Virus record (IMG/VR): IMGVR_UViG_3300049456_000112
Span: 1 to 55,624 of that record
From: a virus
Taxonomy: Duplodnaviria > Caudoviricetes
Strand: one strand, 5' to 3'
DNA length: 55,624 nt
This document shows, piece by piece, positions 12,865-45,793 of the stretch. Below the pieces are notes generated by a model. The model was not told the DNA's origin. It searched no databases and worked only from the letters and a program-made list of their open reading frames with translations. The first letter of the stretch is position 1. The number at the start of each line of letters is the position of its first letter. The position numbers were made by a program, and so were the translations under genes.

Positions 12865-13138
12865 CGGCAATCTCCTTGTTACGCTCCAGCAACATGACGC
12901 CGATCGCGCGGCGTCCCTTGATCTCGGTTTCATAGACGACAGATTCGTCAATGATCATCTGTCGATCCGGCGTCATGCCGGCGATCGTCGTATATTTTTC
13001 GTGGCGGACGACGCCATCGACCATGATGTATTCGATGCGGATGAAGTCGCCGGCCGCGAGAATCAGAGGCGGATCGAATTTGCGGCCGAGCTTCATCTTC
13101 ATGCCAGCACCGGCCCGATGGCGATGGCGCGATGCCAT
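12821..13138 (-). CDS. Hypothetical protein
   Basis: ORF fills the gap in the leftward operon; start uncertain. Confidence 0.45.
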   Translation of the reverse strand: MASRHRHRAGAGMKMKLGRKFDPPLILAAGDFIRIEYIMVDGVVRHEKYTTIAGMTPDRQMIIDESVVYETEIKGRRAIGVMLLERNKEIADEYPEDARSGEYRR

Positions 13139-13608
13139 TTCTTGGTCTGCCGTTTTTTTGGCCTCTTCCGTTGCAGCAGCACGAGGCCGTAATTCTGGGA
13201 GCAGCCGATCTCCCTGGCAAAATTTTTTGATCTGGCATAGCCGCCCTCGGCGGCGAGGCGCATCAATTCATCGCGTTGTGCAGGCGTCAACTTCATCTCA
13301 CTCCTCCGGGCCGGTAATGGCGGAACGGTCAATTGTGGATCGGTGGGGCGAAGCTTCAGCTTTCTTGTGCCCCGCTGCAGGTAATACAAAATCGTGGTGT
13401 GGTCCTTGCCGAGGATCGCAGCGATCCTCGGGGACGAATATTTGCGGTGAGCGAGCCGCCGGGTGACTTCGGCACGGGCAACAACGACCGCTCGCCAACG
13501 GCAATCGCCTACAATCATGTGCTGCGAAACGCCAAATTCCAACGCCACATCGGCGATGATCTGTTTGGCCTCCGGCGTCATCGCCGATGATGGTCCATAT
13601 GATCTCAT
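13099..13608 (-). CDS. DnaA C-terminal (Bac_DnaA_C) HTH-domain protein
   Basis: IIADVALEFGVS...IVG..R...VV.AR.......S.PRIAAILGKDHTTILY. Confidence 0.85.
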   Translation of the reverse strand: MRSYGPSSAMTPEAKQIIADVALEFGVSQHMIVGDCRWRAVVVARAEVTRRLAHRKYSSPRIAAILGKDHTTILYYLQRGTRKLKLRPTDPQLTVPPLPARRSEMKLTPAQRDELMRLAAEGGYARSKNFAREIGCSQNYGLVLLQRKRPKKRQTKKWHRAIAIGPVLA

Positions 13609-13787
13609 CCTTGTTGCTCCCACATCTTTCGCCGCGATCGGGGCAGGCCGAGCTTGATGGCGCGGCGCCGCAGCGTATACGGTCGGTGCCCCATCTTCGC
13701 AGCAATCTCGCGTTCGGTCATCTTGGTTGCCCAGAGTCGCCTGAGCATGCCATCGTCGATCGTCTTGCGCCGCCGCTTCGTCGTCAC
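13605..13787 (-). CDS. Small HTH protein (GcrA N-terminal-like)
   Basis: LRRLWAT.MTEREIAAKMG......RAIKLGL. Confidence 0.5.
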   Translation of the reverse strand: MTTKRRRKTIDDGMLRRLWATKMTEREIAAKMGHRPYTLRRRAIKLGLPRSRRKMWEQQG

Positions 13788-13945
13788 CTGCGCTCGCCCC
13801 TGCAATAGGCATCGATGTCCTTGTCGGAGAGCCCGTGATCGCGCATCTGCGCCCAGAACTCTTCCATCGTGATCTTGTCCTCACCGAACAGACGAAGCAG
13901 CTCGGACATGCGCTCGCGCCAGGAGAGCGCATCCTTCTTCGCCAT
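13784..13945 (-). CDS. Hypothetical 53-aa protein (not in ORF track)
   Basis: MAKKDALSWRERMSELLRLFGEDK...; coupled to both neighbours. Confidence 0.5.
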   Translation of the reverse strand: MAKKDALSWRERMSELLRLFGEDKITMEEFWAQMRDHGLSDKDIDAYCRGERR

Positions 13946-14568
13946 CAAGTTCCGCCTTTCTTCTTCGCCAGCTCGGCCTTCTCCTCATCGGAGAAGTCCA
14001 TCGTTGCACCGGTCGCCGCATATTGGGCGCGCTTGCTTGCCGACATCCGCGTCGAGTTGACCATCTGGCCCTGCGCCACGCTTGCGGTTGATCCGGCCAG
14101 ATTGCCGAGGCCCTGCGCCTGATGCCAATTGTCGAAGTCGACGCCGAGCATGATCACCTGCCAGCCCTTTCTTCGGCATTCGCCGAGCATGTGCTTGGCG
14201 ATCTTGCCATCGTGATCTTCCTTGCTCTGGTTCTCCTCGCCATCTGTCATGATGGTGATTGCGACCCTGTCGTAATTGGCGGCGAGCGCCATCGATGCGA
14301 TCTTGACCACCGCGTCGTTGAGCGGGGTGCCGCCGCGTGGCCTGCAATCCTTGTCGGTCACCGGATGCCACGTCGACGGGATGATGCGGTCGCGGATGAT
14401 CTCGAACTTGAAGACGCCAATATCGAAATCAAAGGTCGCCAGCGTGACGCCGGTGTCGACCTTGTCCTCCGCGAGCTTCGCGACGTAGGAGTTCACCGAC
14501 GAGAGCGCCTCGGCCCAGCGCTTGATCATGGAGCCGGAGCGGTCGAGCAGGATGTAATCATGTTGCAT
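13945..14568 (-). CDS. vWA domain protein
   Basis: ILLDRSGSM MIDAS motif, PRGGTPLNDA, IMTDGEENQSKE. Confidence 0.9.
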   Translation of the reverse strand: MQHDYILLDRSGSMIKRWAEALSSVNSYVAKLAEDKVDTGVTLATFDFDIGVFKFEIIRDRIIPSTWHPVTDKDCRPRGGTPLNDAVVKIASMALAANYDRVAITIMTDGEENQSKEDHDGKIAKHMLGECRRKGWQVIMLGVDFDNWHQAQGLGNLAGSTASVAQGQMVNSTRMSASKRAQYAATGATMDFSDEEKAELAKKKGGT

Positions 14569-14582
14569 TTGGACTTCCTTTG

Positions 14583-15557
14583 TTAGCTGACGGCCCATGG
14601 CGGCGAGGGCAGGCGGGAATCAAGATTCTCGGCCTTAAGACGACCCGCAAAGATCGTCTTCAGGCGCCGGTAGCAGGGCGCGCGGTGAAAATCGGTAAGC
14701 ACCCGGCCGCCAAGCCAATCCAGGTATTCCGGTTCAACCGAAAGCGACATCAGGCATTTCTTGAATTGCTCGGTGTTGACCACGACATATCGCTTCGTCG
14801 TGTTGGCATCGCGGTCCTGGTCGAGCACCATCCGGCGATAGAGCCACATACAGATGCCGATGTTGAGGCTGTTCCAGAGGCGCGCATAGTTGGCATCGCG
14901 GCCCCAAGCGGCATGTGCGACGTGAAGAAACTTGCAGAGGTTGGCGACCTCGCTATCATCAATGTCCTTGGCGATATGGGTGGCATTGACGCTCTGCGCA
15001 TTGCGTGTCGGCGTATCGGCTCGCGATCCGTTCCAGAGCCGGAGGACCGCGCTCATCGAGACAATCGATGTGTATTCGTTGCCCTTCCTGATCTGGTCAT
15101 AGCCGACAAAGGGGCATGTCGCGCGGATCACCTGCAAGGCGTGGGTCGACGCCTCAAGTCCGCGTAGGACGTCGTCTGGGCGCATGCGGACAAGAGATTG
15201 CTGCAGCAGAACAAACTCGTCCGCCATATCGGCCATGCTCTCGAACGTGCAGGTGCGCACGTCGGCGATGCATTCCGGCAATTCGCTTATCTTGAACGCC
15301 TCCAGGCGGTGCTGCCCATCCACGATGTAGGTCGCATTGGCGCCCTTGAGCGTGCCGAGCGTGATCACACCGGAGACAAAGCCGCCATTGGTTTTCAGGT
15401 CCTCGGCGAGCGCGCGGACCTTATCATTAATGCGGAGCGGGCGCTGAAACGCCGGGACGACCCAGCCCAGAACGCTCTCGCGGGAGATCAGCATCGTCTC
15501 CATCAAGGAGATTGCCGACTTCGGAATCTTGCGCGATGCCAGTTTGACCACGGCCAT
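14583..15557 (-). CDS. DGQHR (ParB/DndB-like) domain protein
   Basis: FQRPL and YIVDGQHRL motifs. Confidence 0.8.
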   Translation of the reverse strand: MAVVKLASRKIPKSAISLMETMLISRESVLGWVVPAFQRPLRINDKVRALAEDLKTNGGFVSGVITLGTLKGANATYIVDGQHRLEAFKISELPECIADVRTCTFESMADMADEFVLLQQSLVRMRPDDVLRGLEASTHALQVIRATCPFVGYDQIRKGNEYTSIVSMSAVLRLWNGSRADTPTRNAQSVNATHIAKDIDDSEVANLCKFLHVAHAAWGRDANYARLWNSLNIGICMWLYRRMVLDQDRDANTTKRYVVVNTEQFKKCLMSLSVEPEYLDWLGGRVLTDFHRAPCYRRLKTIFAGRLKAENLDSRLPSPPWAVS

Positions 15558-17620: not shown

Positions 17621-17922
17621 CCGAATACTCACAACAAAAAACGGCGCGGCCTTTCTTTTGAGGCTCATTGCATTGCTGTGATAGTCCCAAATTTTACATC
17701 GGCCAAAATAATTTAAGTCAATCACCTAGCAGCATTAACTATAACTAATTGACGTAGTGACGCGGCGTTCGCGAATTTTCCTTCGATTAGTTACATCTCT
17801 TTGATGCGTCTCGTTTAACAAGCAGCTTTGTACCAAATGCACACTATAGGACGCTTGACCCGATTTGCGGTGCGCAGATAGCTATGCATGCGCATCGCGA
17901 TTTCCGAGGTTGTTGAGTTTGA

Positions 17923-18190
17923 GATGGGCGTCCCTGCTGCTCTGAAGCCGCCGCGCGATGCGACGCTTAATTACATCGCCGAAAAGAAACTCTGGGGCGC
18001 CGTGGCAGATGCCTGCGGAATCCAGGAGGGCGCCGTCCGTCTGTGGCGGCAGGTACCGGCCAAACGCGTGCTCCATGTCGAGCGCGCGCTCGGACGACCG
18101 CGCCATCTCATTCGACCCGACCTCTACGGCAAGCTGCCACCCAGGAAGAGAGTCAATCATGGCGAAGAAAGCAAACGACAACCCGAATGA
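17923..18190 (+). CDS. Cro/YdaS-like regulator
   Basis: AVADACGI..GAVRLWRQVPAKRVLHVERALG.PRHLIRPDLYG; start uncertain. Confidence 0.85.
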
Positions 18191-18548
18191 GCCCGATGCC
18201 GATGATGTGCGCGGCGCCGTCATCAACATCGAGCAAAGATACACCGAGCTTGCGAGCGAGCGCGGCAGCTACATGCTCAAGTGCCGCAGGATCAGGGAGG
18301 CGATGGCCGGCGATTATGAACACGCCGTCAATCGCGGGATTAGCAAGAAGCTCCTTAAGACCATCATCAAGGAACGTGAGCTGGAGCGCCGGATCGAGAA
18401 CCTCGCGGTTGATCTGGAGCCGGATGAGCGGAGCGAATTGGAGATGCTCGTGGAAAAATTGGGAGATTTTGGCAGCTTGCCATTGGGGCAGGCGGCAATC
18501 TCCCGCGCCGAGGGCGGTACCGATGCGCTGAAGCGAATGGGGGCTTGA
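18159..18548 (+). CDS. GapR/DUF2312-like nucleoid-associated protein
   Basis: Helical IEQ..EL......IRE...Y..A..RG...K.LKTIIKER and C-terminal LG...LPLGQAA. Confidence 0.55.
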   Translation: MAKKANDNPNEPDADDVRGAVINIEQRYTELASERGSYMLKCRRIREAMAGDYEHAVNRGISKKLLKTIIKERELERRIENLAVDLEPDERSELEMLVEKLGDFGSLPLGQAAISRAEGGTDALKRMGA

Positions 18549-18558
18549 AGTTGACCAG

Positions 18559-18643
18559 CGCGCCGCGCCTCATCGCTACTCTCTGCCCCGCGCCACCTCG
18601 CAACGCGACGCTCCGCAGCGCGCCGCAACGCTCCGCAACGCAA
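18559..18643 (+). repeat. Pentamer array A1 (17 x [C/T]NC-NN, mostly CGC-NN)
   Basis: CGCGC CGCGC CTCAT CGCTA CTCTC TGCCC CGCGC CACCT CGCAA CGCGA CGCTC CGCAG CGCGC CGCAA CGCTC CGCAA CGCAA. Confidence 0.95.
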
Positions 18644-18672
18644 GTTCAACGCCCTGACATCTAATTCCCTCT

Positions 18673-18727
18673 CACCGCGCACTGCGGCGCTCCGCGCCGC
18701 GACGCAGCGCAACGCAGCGCGACGTAA
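18673..18727 (+). repeat. Pentamer array A2 (10 units plus terminal CGT)
   Basis: CACCG CGCAC TGCGG CGCTC CGCGC CGCGA CGCAG CGCAA CGCAG CGCGA CGTAA. Confidence 0.9.
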
Positions 18728-18846
18728 ATTTCACCGAACAATAGGAGGCCATCGCCAGAAAAATCTGACTCCCTCTTTTTAAGGCCGCTTCGCACCGCCA
18801 ATCAATGGCATCCGCGAATAAACCCTTAGCAGAAAGAAAAATCTCG

Positions 18847-19404
18847 ATGAGAAACTGTAAAATCAGCATGCAATCAATCACGCCCTATTCACAGAGCCGG
18901 CAGCACGAAACGCCAAAACTCAATGGCGAGACGAACGATGGCCATGAGCTGCGGACATGGCGGGAGAAGTGCAACTACAACAAAGAGGGCTTCCTCTACA
19001 TCCCGGCCATGGCCCTGAAGCAATGCATGGACTCGGCATCCAAGAAGAGCGGCCTGCAAATACCGGGCAAAGGCAAATCGACCTACGCGAAGTATTTCCT
19101 GGCCGACGTGATCTGCGATGCCGACGTGGTGCTGCAGACCAAAAAGGATCAGGTCGACTCTGTGCGGATCAGCGCCAATGTCGATGGCGTGCGCGGGAGT
19201 GGCAAGCGCGTCTGGCGAACCTTCCCGGTGGTACCGAGCTGGTCGGCGGTCGCGCACTTTACGATCCTCGATGATACCGTCAGCAAGGATATCTTTGAGA
19301 CCGTATTCAAGCTCGGCGGCGCCAGCATCGGCATCGGCCGGTTCCGGCCCGAGAAGGGCGGTCTCAATGGTCGATTCCGGCCGACCAAGTTTGAATGGAG
19401 CTGA
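18847..19404 (+). CDS. RAMP/Cas7-like RNA-binding protein (stand-alone, no CRISPR)
   Basis: N-terminal strand ending ITP, RAMP-like LYIPAMALK motif, C-terminal Gly-rich loop GIGRFRPEKGGLNGRF. Confidence 0.6.
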   Translation: MRNCKISMQSITPYSQSRQHETPKLNGETNDGHELRTWREKCNYNKEGFLYIPAMALKQCMDSASKKSGLQIPGKGKSTYAKYFLADVICDADVVLQTKKDQVDSVRISANVDGVRGSGKRVWRTFPVVPSWSAVAHFTILDDTVSKDIFETVFKLGGASIGIGRFRPEKGGLNGRFRPTKFEWS

Positions 19405-19406
19405 TA

Positions 19407-19883
19407 ATGAGCTTCATCCAACGCTCGGACATCGCCGATCTCAGCCGCAGGATCGTCGCCGCATTGGTCGGTACCAATGATGAAGTCTCCGACACCGCGC
19501 TTTCGCAGGTCGTCGGAGAAACCATTGCGCCCAACTCCTACGCGCTGAAGGCCGCATTCCGCGACCTGCAGCGCGCCGACCCGCCCATCCATTTCCGGCG
19601 CATCAGGCGGGTCGGTTGGAAACGGATGCATGACCCCGATTTGGTCGTACATTCGGAGGCCGACCTGAAGAAGATTGCACGCGGTGCGCGCCGTGGTCGC
19701 AAACGGTTGGGTGATGTTCGGTTCTCCGCGCTCAACAACCAAGATCAGCTCCACGCGGCGCGCAACAACACGCGGTTTGCCGCGATCGAGGATGCGGCGA
19801 CAACGGTCAAGAGCCGGATGCCGTCCAGACTTCCTGATCTCTCCGACGTCATCGCAAGGATCAAGGGTGAACAGGTCACGTAA
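19407..19883 (+). CDS. Basic putative DNA-binding protein associated with the pentamer arrays
   Basis: Starts 2 nt after the RAMP-like stop; wHTH-like N-terminal half (ALSQVVG...FRRIRRVGWKR), Arg-rich helix. Confidence 0.65.
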   Translation: MSFIQRSDIADLSRRIVAALVGTNDEVSDTALSQVVGETIAPNSYALKAAFRDLQRADPPIHFRRIRRVGWKRMHDPDLVVHSEADLKKIARGARRGRKRLGDVRFSALNNQDQLHAARNNTRFAAIEDAATTVKSRMPSRLPDLSDVIARIKGEQVT

Positions 19884-19889
19884 ATCCGG

Positions 19890-20002
19890 CGCCCCGCCGC
19901 GCCCCGCAGCACGTCGCTACGCGTCGCGCCACCCCGCAACGCACTGCTTCTCGACGCATCGCATCGCGCCACTGCGCACCACTGCGCATCTCAACGCAAC
20001 GT
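19890..20002 (+). repeat. Pentamer array A3 (22 units plus CGT)
   Basis: CGCCC CGCCG CGCCC CGCAG CACGT CGCTA CGCGT CGCGC CACCC CGCAA CGCAC TGCTT CTCGA CGCAT CGCAT CGCGC CACTG CGCAC CACTG CGCAT CTCAA CGCAA CGT. Confidence 0.95.
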
Positions 20003-20018
20003 CCACCGAGATCACCGC

Positions 20019-20096
20019 CGCAGCGCTGCGCTTCGCCCTGCTTCTCACCACCTCGCGACACAGCTCTCCGCAACGCGTCGCAATGCACCGCAACGT
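20019..20096 (+). repeat. Pentamer array A4 (15 units plus CGT)
   Basis: CGCAG CGCTG CGCTT CGCCC TGCTT CTCAC CACCT CGCGA CACAG CTCTC CGCAA CGCGT CGCAA TGCAC CGCAA CGT. Confidence 0.95.
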
Positions 20097-20113
20097 CTGC
20101 CACAAATTGCCGC

Positions 20114-20176
20114 CGCATCGCCTCGCATCGCTCTGCCTCACCTCGCCTCGCCACGCTCTGCCCCGCAATGCAACGT
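20114..20176 (+). repeat. Pentamer array A5 (12 units plus CGT)
   Basis: CGCAT CGCCT CGCAT CGCTC TGCCT CACCT CGCCT CGCCA CGCTC TGCCC CGCAA TGCAA CGT. Confidence 0.95.
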
Positions 20177-20199
20177 TTTGCCCCGGATCGCTTTCCCTT

Positions 20200-20277
20200 C
20201 GCCGCGCCACGCGCCGCCTCTCCACGCCCCGCCCCGCATCGCCCCGCGTGGCAGCTCGCCGCAGCTCATCGCATCGG
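20200..20277 (+). repeat. Pentamer array A6 (15 units plus CGG)
   Basis: CGCCG CGCCA CGCGC CGCCT CTCCA CGCCC CGCCC CGCAT CGCCC CGCGT GGCAG CTCGC CGCAG CTCAT CGCAT CGG. Confidence 0.95.
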
Positions 20278-20285
20278 TTTTGAAA

Positions 20286-20777
20286 ATGACAGTCGTTTTG
20301 GCATTGGATTTGGCATCAATCAGCGGCTGGGCTCTCGGCGAGCCCGGCGGCACGCCGACGCACGGCTACATCCGATTCGCCGCGCCCGGCTCTTCGCACG
20401 AGGCGATCTTTGCCGCCGCGTGCAGGTGGATGATCGACATGATGGAAAGACGGCCAACGGTTGTTGTCTTTGAGTCGCCGCTCGCGACATCGTTCAAGCG
20501 CGGCAAGACCAACGCGAGCACCACCGGATTGCTCTGGGGACTCCCTGCCGTGATCGGTGCCGTCGCCTACATGTCCGGGTGTTACAACATCAGGAAGGCC
20601 GACACGCGCGATGTCCGCATCCATTTCATCGGAAGCAACCCGCCGCGCGCCAAGGCGAAGGCCATGACGGTGCTGAACTGTCAGCGCCTCGGCTGGAACG
20701 TCACCGACGACAATGAGGCCGACGCGCTCGCGATCTGGCATTTCATGTGCACCATCATCGCGCGGAGCAAATCATGA
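20286..20777 (+). CDS. RuvC-like Holliday junction resolvase
   Basis: VLALDLASISGWA, VVVFESP, DDNEADALAIW catalytic motifs. Confidence 0.85.
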   Translation: MTVVLALDLASISGWALGEPGGTPTHGYIRFAAPGSSHEAIFAAACRWMIDMMERRPTVVVFESPLATSFKRGKTNASTTGLLWGLPAVIGAVAYMSGCYNIRKADTRDVRIHFIGSNPPRAKAKAMTVLNCQRLGWNVTDDNEADALAIWHFMCTIIARSKS

Positions 20778-21052
20778 TCGATTGCCCGTATTGCGCCGGC
20801 AGCGGCAAGGTGAAGTCACGGCCCATTCCGGTGGCGCTCACGCCATTGCAACGGCGCATCTATGAGCTGCTCGCCGCCGTTCCGATCGGTGTCTCAATTG
20901 ATGCTGTTGTTAACCGTGTCTATGTCGATGGCGCACCGCCCAATGCGAGAAACTCGGTATGGGTAACGATCATCAACGCCAACAAACGGCTAGAGCCGTT
21001 CCAGCAAAGAATAATCGCAAAACGCGGCTGGTGCAGTCTGAAGACGATCTGA
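20774..21052 (+). CDS. Zn-knuckle plus winged-helix protein
   Basis: CPYCAGSG, LTPLQRRIYELL, NSVWVTI..NKRL....RG. Confidence 0.65.
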   Translation: MIDCPYCAGSGKVKSRPIPVALTPLQRRIYELLAAVPIGVSIDAVVNRVYVDGAPPNARNSVWVTIINANKRLEPFQQRIIAKRGWCSLKTI

Positions 21053-35325: not shown

Positions 35326-36642
35326 ATGGCCCAGATCAACGTCGCCAACAAAAATAACGAAAAGACCCACGAGGGCGCGCCCGCGTTCGGGCATCTGACG
35401 CCGATGCAGTCCCTGCGCCGATCGGTCATGTCCTGCCTCCTATGGGAGGACGAGTTCTACGAAGATGGGAAGACGATCGCCGATCGCATTGTCGAGACGG
35501 CGAAGGTCTGCCCGTCCGCCGATGTCGCCGCGCTCGCGATAGAGGCGCGCAAGGTCATGCACCTGCGCCATGTCCCGCTTCTTCTCCTGCGCGCCCTGGT
35601 GCGCACCGCGCCGCACCTTGTTGCGGAGACGATGCCGCGCGTGATCTCCCGCGCCGATGAGATGGGCGAGTTTCTCTCGCTCTACCTTGCGACCAACGAT
35701 GGCCGCCGGACCTTCCCGCGCCAGATGCGTCTTGGTCTCGGCCGCGCCATGGCCGGCTTCGACGAATATGCGCTCGCGAAGTACGATCGCGATGGCAAGG
35801 TGAAGCTGCGCGACGTCCTGCGCATTGCCCGGCCGAAGCCGTTTGGCCCGGAGCAGTCCGCGCTGTGGAAGCGCGCCGTCACGCGGACGCTCGCGACTCC
35901 CGACACGTGGGAGGTCGCGCTCTCTGGCGGCAAGGACAAGAAGGAGACGTTTGAGCGGCTGCTCAAGGGGCGGAAGCTCGGCTATCTCGCGCTGCTGCGC
36001 AATCTGCGCAACATGGCAGAGGCCAATGTTGACGTCGACCTGATCCGCGAGGCCATCCTGGCCCGCCGTGGCGGCGCACAGATGGTCTTCCCGTTCCGCT
36101 ATGTCGCCGCCGCGCGTGTTGCGCCGATGCACGAGCCGCAGCTCGATATCGCATTGCAGGCGGCGATTGCCGAGCTGCCGGTCCTCCCGGGCAAGACGAT
36201 TGTCCTGATCGACGTCTCCGGCTCCATGGACCATGCGATGTCCAGGAAATCGGACATGAAGCGGATCGATGCGGCGGCGGCGCTCGGGGCGATCGTCCAT
36301 GGCGACATCCGACTCTTCACGTTCTCTGATCTCCTTCGCGAGATTCCGCCACGTCACGGCATGGCCGGCGTCGATGCGATCGTGCGCTCGCAGCCGCACG
36401 GCGGCACCAACCTCGGCGCCGCCATCGCGCAAATTAACGCCAATGTGCCGGCGGATAGGCTCATCGTTGTGACCGATGAGCAGAGCCACGATGCGGTGCC
36501 GAACGCCTTCGCGAAAGGCTACATGATCAATGTTGCCAGCAACAAAAACGGTGTCGGGTACGGGAAGTGGACCCACATCGACGGCTTTTCGGAAAATGTG
36601 CTGCGCTACATCAACGAGATCGAGCGCAGCGAGGCGGCATGA
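35326..36642 (+). CDS. rsr: Ro60/Rsr TROVE-domain RNA-binding protein
   Basis: THEGAPA, LRRSVMSCLLWEDEFYEDG, AR..MHLRHVP, FDEYALAKY, PDTWEVALS, LGYLALLRNLRN, vWA DVSGSM, GGT, VTDEQ, IDGFSE. Confidence 0.93.
   Translation: MAQINVANKNNEKTHEGAPAFGHLTPMQSLRRSVMSCLLWEDEFYEDGKTIADRIVETAKVCPSADVAALAIEARKVMHLRHVPLLLLRALVRTAPHLVAETMPRVISRADEMGEFLSLYLATNDGRRTFPRQMRLGLGRAMAGFDEYALAKYDRDGKVKLRDVLRIARPKPFGPEQSALWKRAVTRTLATPDTWEVALSGGKDKKETFERLLKGRKLGYLALLRNLRNMAEANVDVDLIREAILARRGGAQMVFPFRYVAAARVAPMHEPQLDIALQAAIAELPVLPGKTIVLIDVSGSMDHAMSRKSDMKRIDAAAALGAIVHGDIRLFTFSDLLREIPPRHGMAGVDAIVRSQPHGGTNLGAAIAQINANVPADRLIVVTDEQSHDAVPNAFAKGYMINVASNKNGVGYGKWTHIDGFSENVLRYINEIERSEAA

Positions 36643-43792: not shown

Positions 43793-43796
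<4 letters not shown>
42933..43796 (-). CDS. pseB: UDP-GlcNAc 4,6-dehydratase (PseB/FlaA1-like)
   Basis: ITGGSGAFG, LRFFIGDVRD, IHAAALK, YNP.E..KTNIDGA.NV, LSSDKA..P...YG.SK, VRYGNV..STGSVVP. Confidence 0.88.

Positions 43797-45789
<1,993 letters not shown>

Positions 45790-45793
<4 letters not shown>

Follow-up and report, generated by a model that had tools for sequence, protein, structure and literature searches.

What is the function of two intergenic zones in a phage genome that are built mostly of five-nucleotide units, each with three fixed and two variable bases? The zones (18549-18846 and 19884-20285, + strand, early operon) lie in the IMG/VR virus record IMGVR_UViG_3300049456_000112, which was analyzed over its whole 55,624 bases (hereafter, the window) and has an estimated completeness of 53%. 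They enclose a two-gene cassette, and the resulting layout from 5′ to 3′ is two arrays of pentamers, a gene designated here as vipr, a 162-aa gene that overlaps the vipr stop, and four further arrays. Our analysis makes it very probable that 18549-20285 is a VIPR (Viral Interference Programmable Repeat) locus within the early/replication operon of a temperate soil phage. VIPR systems, a relative of CRISPR by which phages silence rival elements, have already been described in 2026 preprints; this locus differs from them in its CGC fixed triplet (the handle), short unstructured spacers of ∼19 to 21 nt, and longer arrays. The features of the locus are as follows:

18559-18643, + strand: predicted vrRNA array A1, 17 CGC/NN units, upstream of vipr
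18673-18722, + strand: predicted vrRNA array A2, 10 units, followed by CGTAA
18847-19404, + strand: vipr gene, RAMP/Cas7-like, 185 aa, assigned from homology and a structural model
19395-19883, + strand: likely vap (vipr-accessory) gene, 162 aa, overlapping the vipr stop
19885-19999, + strand: predicted vrRNA array A3, 23 units
20000-20018, + strand: spacer or short 3′ tail, starting with CGT, CGTCCACCGAGATCACCGC, like the spacers of the two closest relatives
20019-20093, + strand: predicted vrRNA array A4, 15 units
20094-20113, + strand: spacer or short 3′ tail, starting with CGT
20114-20173, + strand: predicted vrRNA array A5, 12 units
20174-20194, + strand: spacer or short 3′ tail, starting with CGT
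20195-20274, + strand: predicted vrRNA array A6, 16 units

The pentamer arrays are real and far from chance. All six are on the + strand between 18559 and 20274 and hold 17, 10, 23, 15, 12, and 16 pentamers, which amounts to 93 units read in register. A search for (CGCNN)x4+CGC with at most one mismatch returned 32 matches in the window, as compared to 0.33 expected from 100 dinucleotide-preserving shuffles (standard deviation 0.70, maximum 3), and all 32 are on the + strand and confined to the two intergenic zones. The fixed triplet is CGC in 64 units, CTC in nine, CAC in nine, and TGC in eight, with three singletons that include one GGC. The information content of the 93 units is 1.46, 0.95, and 2.0 bits at positions 1 to 3 and 0.06 and 0.03 bits at positions 4 and 5. 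The array detector accepts a unit only if its third base is C and its first is C or T, which means that the values at those two positions are partly built in; a raw print-out of the 5-mers has the same pattern. Analysis of the arrays with Tandem Repeats Finder (TRF) returned short period-5 and period-10 repeats with 69 to 100% matches.

Reading only the two variable bases (NN) of each unit gives GC GC AT TA TC CC GC CT AA GA TC AG GC AA TC AA AA for A1 and CG AC GG TC GC GA AG AA AG GA for A2. An independent parse reproduced the NN strings that the original prediction had given for A1 to A6 letter for letter. Its six arrays stand as well, with the correction that it had omitted the degenerate first units TCCGG of A3 (counted as 22 units starting at 19890) and CCCTT of A6 (15 units starting at 20200). 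Its equation of six arrays with six guides may be an undercount, as A1 (17 units) and A3 (23 units) exceed the 9 to 16 units of characterized vrRNAs and may be composite.

The ends of the arrays follow a pattern of their own. In the window, the inter-array spacers are 19 to 21 nt long and start with CGT after a terminal CGCAA unit. Among 397 arrays with flanks, which have a median length of 14 units, the last unit is AA in 167 (AA makes up 12.8% of units overall), and in 173 the array is followed by CGT, CGA, or CGG. It was thus reasonable to set the terminal AA units aside when targets are sought, as had been proposed. The arrays plus spacers folded no better than shuffled sequences (z of +0.83, +1.84, +0.15, and −0.77), as is expected of protein-bound single-stranded guides, and Rfam searches of the window region and four relatives found no family above chance. 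The NN composition correlates with antisense codon positions 1-2 (r 0.67) and with sense codon positions 2-3 (r 0.62), and this comparison is non-discriminating.

The locus is identified by the first gene of its cassette. Although the open reading frame (ORF) extends from an ATG at 18805 (199 aa), 20 aligned homologues start at the Met at 18847 or at most a few residues away. A profile of 21 Vipr homologues, which are 36 to 58% identical to the protein of the window, matches PDB entry 36pp_D, "SUSP1 Vipr protein", with an E-value of 1.8e-8 over 88 residues that run from the thumb region to the G-loop. An AlphaFold2 (AF2) model of the window's protein (predicted local distance difference test (pLDDT) 93.6, predicted template modeling score (pTM) 0.85) gave 171 Foldseek matches at E ≤0.001, with Cas7-type RAMPs from the effector complexes of types VII and III at the top (E 5e-8, template modeling (TM) score ∼0.56). 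A loop with the sequence GIGRFRP...GRF is conserved among the homologues. Pfam returned no match for the window's Vipr protein, and in PHROGs it belongs to phrog_4652, a family annotated as function unknown. Since the first gene of the cassette is a Vipr homologue by profile match and by its RAMP fold, we conclude with high confidence that the locus is a VIPR system. The 162-aa gene is likely vap. A model of its product (pLDDT 76) has a helix-helix-helix-strand-strand core, which is winged-helix-like, followed by long helices; the fold matches to winged-helix regulators are weak (best E 0.095), and weak homologues of the protein adjoin vipr in eight loci.

According to the text of the first VIPR report, these systems are phage-borne and consist of vipr and vap flanked by intergenic arrays, which give rise to vrRNAs of ∼100 nt with 9 to 16 GGY/NN repeats plus a 3′ tail (PMC13142463). 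The NN bases alone specify the double-stranded DNA target by a "1-nt skip" rule, and the natural targets described there are rival phages, satellites, and other VIPR systems (PMC13142463). In the structural account, one Vipr protomer is bound per repeat, and G1, G2, and Y3 are held by two neighboring protomers, with extrusion of a single target base at each repeat (10.64898/2026.04.26.720927). A further preprint reports 21 clusters with non-canonical triplets, found by entropy periodicity, and names GAC, CAC, WGT, and TGH (10.64898/2026.10.21.760802).

Measured against these descriptions, the window resembles the type II VIPR of Escherichia phage SUSP1 and of a Pseudomonas fulva prophage in its phage-borne vipr and likely vap with arrays on both sides (PMC13142463; 10.64898/2026.04.26.720927). 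The resemblance extends to gene-strand pentamers in which a fixed triplet is joined to two variable bases, to a RAMP with a G-loop, and, within the clade of the window (locus L174, see below), to a 1-nt-skip coding match in which the skipped base is the wobble base. Unlike the 9 to 16 units reported for characterized VIPR, the window arrays have 10 to 23 units, and the similarity to SUSP1 Vipr is seen by profile only, over the 88 residues noted above. The locus also resembles the non-canonical VIPR-like arrays in its period of five and its non-GGY triplet beside a Vipr-like fold, and differs from them in having CGC rather than one of the triplets named in the text (10.64898/2026.10.21.760802). 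The string "CGC" is absent from the text of that preprint and from the text of the PMC13142463 supplement; as the logos are in figures, CGC may be among the 21 clusters. A more distant likeness is to the class 1 CRISPR backbone, the filament of Cas7/Csm3/Cmr4 on CRISPR RNA (crRNA), which supplies the best structural matches of the Vipr model. As the VIPR papers recount, a Cas7-type filament places one protomer per fixed RNA step, with a thumb that interrupts the guide-target duplex, as in VIPR. Unlike class 1 CRISPR, the system is encoded by a phage and has a period of 5 nt instead of 6 nt and a non-contiguous guide; neither CRISPR repeats nor other cas genes were found in the window.

Homologous loci link the arrays to vipr. 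The bare DNA pattern (CGCNN)x6+CGC occurs in at least 142 IMG/VR stretches, many of which have several arrays on one strand, and a single locus holds up to 225 units. Of 35 non-redundant sources with at least 3 kb and at least 30 units (window included), 26 carry a vipr homologue, and in 28 of 28 Vipr-bearing sources vipr is on the array strand. The same ORF comparison did not find the RuvC-like, initiator, and primase-helicase genes recurring in the other loci. The nearest Vipr proteins in genomes are from Lichenihabitans, Beijerinckiaceae, Paracoccus, and Devosia (51 to 60% identity). Among 35 genome loci that were found with the Vipr profile and oriented by vipr (L143-L177), most read CGC on the gene strand, five have the canonical GGC (L155, L156, L165, L166, and L168), and the others have CTC (L143 and L159), CAC (L163), GAC (L164), or GTT (L162). 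The presence of CGC in most loci and GGC in five, both on the gene strand, indicates that the RNA strand is the gene strand and that C1-G2-C3 occupies the place of G1-G2-Y3. L225 and L226, which are the closest relatives in IMG/VR with Vipr identities of 77% and 75%, share this layout and resemble the window in their CGT... spacers, as can be seen from CGTCTATCGAGATCACC in the relatives and CGTCCACCGAGATCACC in the window. Their NN strings are wholly different from those of the window, while the triplet and spacer are conserved.

The original prediction had read the variable dinucleotides as a gapped code for targeting, akin to spacers, and had proposed that gap sizes be compared against shuffled unit order. 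For this comparison we used 2413 ten-unit segments with at least six distinct dinucleotides each, from 404 arrays of 161 non-redundant sources (homologous and pattern-found loci). They were matched to 1.54 Mb, on both strands and with the arrays masked, at a cutoff of 18/20. With a 1-nt gap there were 34 matches (24 at 18, seven at 19, and three at 20), as compared to four at gap 0 and five at gap 2. The controls at the 1-nt gap gave 3, 6, and 6 matches with shuffled unit order and 8 with backwards reading. Counted as distinct guide-target registers, the matches number 4, 19, and 5 at gaps 0, 1, and 2, respectively, and 11 guide arrays contribute at gap 1. This complexity-filtered test replaced a first all-against-all count of exact seeds (1070 real, 922 shuffled, 3575 backwards), which had been swamped by low-complexity guides on codon-periodic DNA. 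The enrichment at a 1-nt gap across the family and the Vipr homologue at the locus support a targeting code, and the prediction was right in kind. The outcome that was to refute the code, no excess over the shuffled order at any gap size, did not occur.

The dominant guide in this test is the first array after vipr in L174 (L174:6568-6627), a Rhodospirillales metagenome-assembled genome (MAG) whose handles are CGC. The first 12 units of this guide, CG CC AG AA AA GG TA TA GG AG TT GA, agree with vipr of L015, a phage from IMG/VR, at 24 of 24 bases (L015:2886-2921) with a 1-nt gap, in frame and with the skip at the wobble position. The match covers the G-loop codons of L015 vipr, which encode the peptide RPRNNGYYGRFE, and the guide also matches nine other vipr genes at 18 to 19 of 20. 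L174's own Vipr has the same residues as L015 at 11 of the 12 positions, and its gene differs from the guide in four of the 12 units: three Arg codons are spelled otherwise (AGG or CGN, as compared to CG or AG in the guide), and one Ser codon stands where L015 has Glu. Based on this match and the gap-1 excess, the published 1-nt rule holds for at least one CGC-handle system. Separately, the first array downstream of vipr in L015 (L015:2961-3065) starts AA GG TA TA GG TG TT GA AT, which corresponds to the G-loop codons of its own vipr (L015:2898) with one of the first nine units different. This array could be aimed at a variant rival, or it could be autoregulatory.

By homology with the SUSP1 and P. 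fulva systems, our current hypothesis is that the + strand of the locus is transcribed and that the six arrays are processed into vrRNAs. Vipr protomers (18847-19404) would then polymerize on each vrRNA, one per pentamer, with a pair of protomers sequestering the fixed triplet and exposing the two variable bases; recognition of CGC would resemble that of GGY. The exposed NN pairs would read double-stranded DNA in a gapped manner (NN, skip one, NN, and so on), and the bound complex may silence transcription of a rival mobile element, as the putative target. In this scheme the downstream 162-aa gene would act as the accessory vap.

A number of results weigh against the locus being a VIPR system that works in this way, and the most direct is that the searches run found no targets for the window's own six strings. 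A local scan of 839 kb at gaps 0 to 3 gave 20/20 matches only at gap 3, where they are the arrays themselves; apart from these, 18/20 or better was reached only twice, by A6 at gap 2, in two loci that derive from the same contig. Exact 8-unit seeds with a 1-nt gap were searched against IMG/VR for A1 (units 8-15, 7 hits), A2 (units 1-8, 7 hits), A3 (units 2-9, 0 hits; units 14-21, 8 hits), A4 (units 1-8, 8 hits), and A6 (units 2-9, 14 hits), and none extended by more than one further unit. In metagenome contigs, all 14 informative units of A4 had no exact match, and the 10 informative units of A5 matched exactly at three loci, with about one expected by chance on a rough estimate. Two of these three are near-identical CT-rich stretches of 36% GC. 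The A5 match at L222:311-339, at a gatA-gatB junction in a contig of 62% GC, was judged to be chance, as the skipped base is the second of the codon and the two AA units at the end are unmatched. With up to three mismatches, A4 had no match in five genomes with related VIPR loci or in 401 genomes of the order of one of these, with backwards controls likewise at zero, and A6 had none in the whole records of the five nearest relatives. When every guide was scanned at gaps 0 to 2 against the complete records of the window and its five nearest relatives (six in all), nothing rose above shuffles, and the best self-match in the window, 16/18, was also reached by shuffles. This blank says little, because the searches were mostly exact (seeds of 8 to 14 units) and the host is not known.

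The remaining points of this kind concern the family test, the protein, the handle, and the setting. Ten of the 19 gap-1 registers come from one guide. The residues D177, W178, and R138 of SUSP1, which contact G1 and G2, align with R, F, and F in the window's Vipr. The triplet is CGC/YGC, unlike the GGY of the SUSP1 and P. fulva systems; since the VIPR papers leave room for "a related consensus" and for non-canonical triplets in their definitions, this difference affects subtype rather than VIPR membership. The spacers of 19 to 21 nt without excess folding are unlike the ∼40-nt pseudoknot tail described for SUSP1. A sigma-70-like promoter was not found within 17700-20500. Finally, nine of the 35 array-rich sources have no Vipr gene in the available DNA, and two of these nine (L001 and L033) resemble simple repeats on both strands. 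A replacement of D177 by R had been considered as the cause of the G1-to-C1 switch and was dropped, as GGC-type relatives have the same GRFRP loop, a feature that was required by the search pattern that found them.

Several identities proposed for the arrays, namely a binding site for a TRAP-like ring protein, a Rho rut site, a pentapeptide-coding frame, and an origin or iterons, were dropped once the flanking gene was seen to be a Vipr homologue. It may still be asked whether the VIPR-type RNAs of the arrays have a role other than that of DNA guides, as decoys or sponges for a rival Vipr or as an autoregulatory element of the phage's own early operon. The lack of targets for the six strings would fit such a role, as would the relatives with up to 225 units in one locus and the L015 array that resembles its own vipr G-loop codons. 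A sponge, however, needs the triplet only, whereas the NN bases are near maximal entropy and wholly different in close relatives. Moreover, the window has no self-match above chance, and the 24/24 match of the L174 array to a rival gene is guide-like. We therefore regard a non-guide RNA as improbable.

The repeats could also act as DNA, for instance as iterons, a replication origin, or a protein-coating site, an idea suggested by their position in a replication/recombination operon just upstream of the genes for a RuvC-like protein, a DUF1376 initiator, and a primase-helicase. The same search did not recover these genes from the other loci, and the partner that does recur is a RAMP RNA-binding protein and no initiator. 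In each of the 28 sources with a Vipr gene the arrays keep to the strand of vipr, and a 5-bp period would be expected to place successive sites on opposite faces of B-DNA; a DNA element is accordingly very improbable. That the arrays are functionless, degenerate pentanucleotide microsatellites that arose by slippage in GC-rich DNA is, in our view, scarcely credible, even though TRF describes them as imperfect period-5 and period-10 repeats and L001 and L033 look like simple repeats. Decay would randomize all five positions, but here three are fixed and two are random, the 32 matches (0.33 expected) are on one strand, and the arrays are linked to vipr. The conserved array ends, with AA last in 167 of 397 and CGT, CGA, or CGG next in 173 of 397, argue for selection.

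Arrays elsewhere in the family vary in architecture. In L010 (1520-3070, turned so that the arrays are on the + strand), the spacers are ∼43 to 75 nt, as compared to ∼18 nt elsewhere, and have a conserved hairpin-like core, …ggcatccag…ctggatgccgggtcgagaggcc…, without an Rfam match; this core might be a hairpin for processing or a ribozyme not yet described. Three IMG/VR loci (L008, L017, and L049) have single arrays of 44 to 53 units with internal CGCAA-CGCAA marks every 10 to 20 units, a pattern that would fit the "staggered" vrRNA arrays described in PMC13142463.

The wider gene content of the window includes a serine integrase, an exonuclease VIII-like protein, a RuvC-like resolvase, a DUF1376 replication initiator, a primase-helicase, a terminase, and a portal. 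The gene for the RuvC-like protein starts at 20286, 11 nt after the end of A6. A BLAST search of 17900-21000 against GenBank phages returned zero matches. Among sequencing runs, one DNA run from a soil metagenome, possibly the source, was listed as containing the sequence, and no RNA run was listed. Outside of the VIPR locus, one gene (35326-36642, + strand) encodes a protein in which a VWA domain comes after a TROVE (Ro60-like) domain, and another (43793-45793, − strand) fuses a cytidylyltransferase domain to a class-III aminotransferase domain, which is probably sugar-nucleotide modification chemistry in a phage. On the integrase side, a leftward cluster (13099-15557, − strand) encodes a DnaA-C-like helix-turn-helix (HTH) protein, a VWA-domain protein (phrog_7371), and a protein with a sub-threshold match to GmrSD_N.

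Why would a VIPR system have CGC in place of GGY? Because one Vipr clade holds GGC, CGC, CTC, CAC, GAC, and GTT handles, we tentatively propose that the fixed triplet is an evolvable identity tag and that switching it stops co-resident or rival VIPRs from loading each other's guides. VIPRs might also aim guides at each other's vipr while recoding their own, an idea that comes from the L174 guide, which matches the G-loop codons of a rival at 24/24 while its own gene escapes partly via synonymous Arg codons. The CGC of the window would then be one orthogonal "channel" in an arms race of VIPR against VIPR. We put this forward as a speculation that may well prove wrong.

Taken together, a code that was read by eye from raw sequence corresponds to real biology, a non-contiguous RNA guide, and the VIPR family now takes in GC-rich phages that form an abundant group (at least 142 stretches in IMG/VR) with a CGC handle, short unstructured spacers, and longer arrays. 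The guide of L174 against the vipr of L015 provides a compact natural example of phage-phage conflict, VIPR against VIPR. If the handle switch is specific, it would offer an orthogonal, non-cross-talking handle for programmable DNA binding and would bear on how RAMP proteins change their RNA-handle specificity, which is relevant to the proposed origin of CRISPR.

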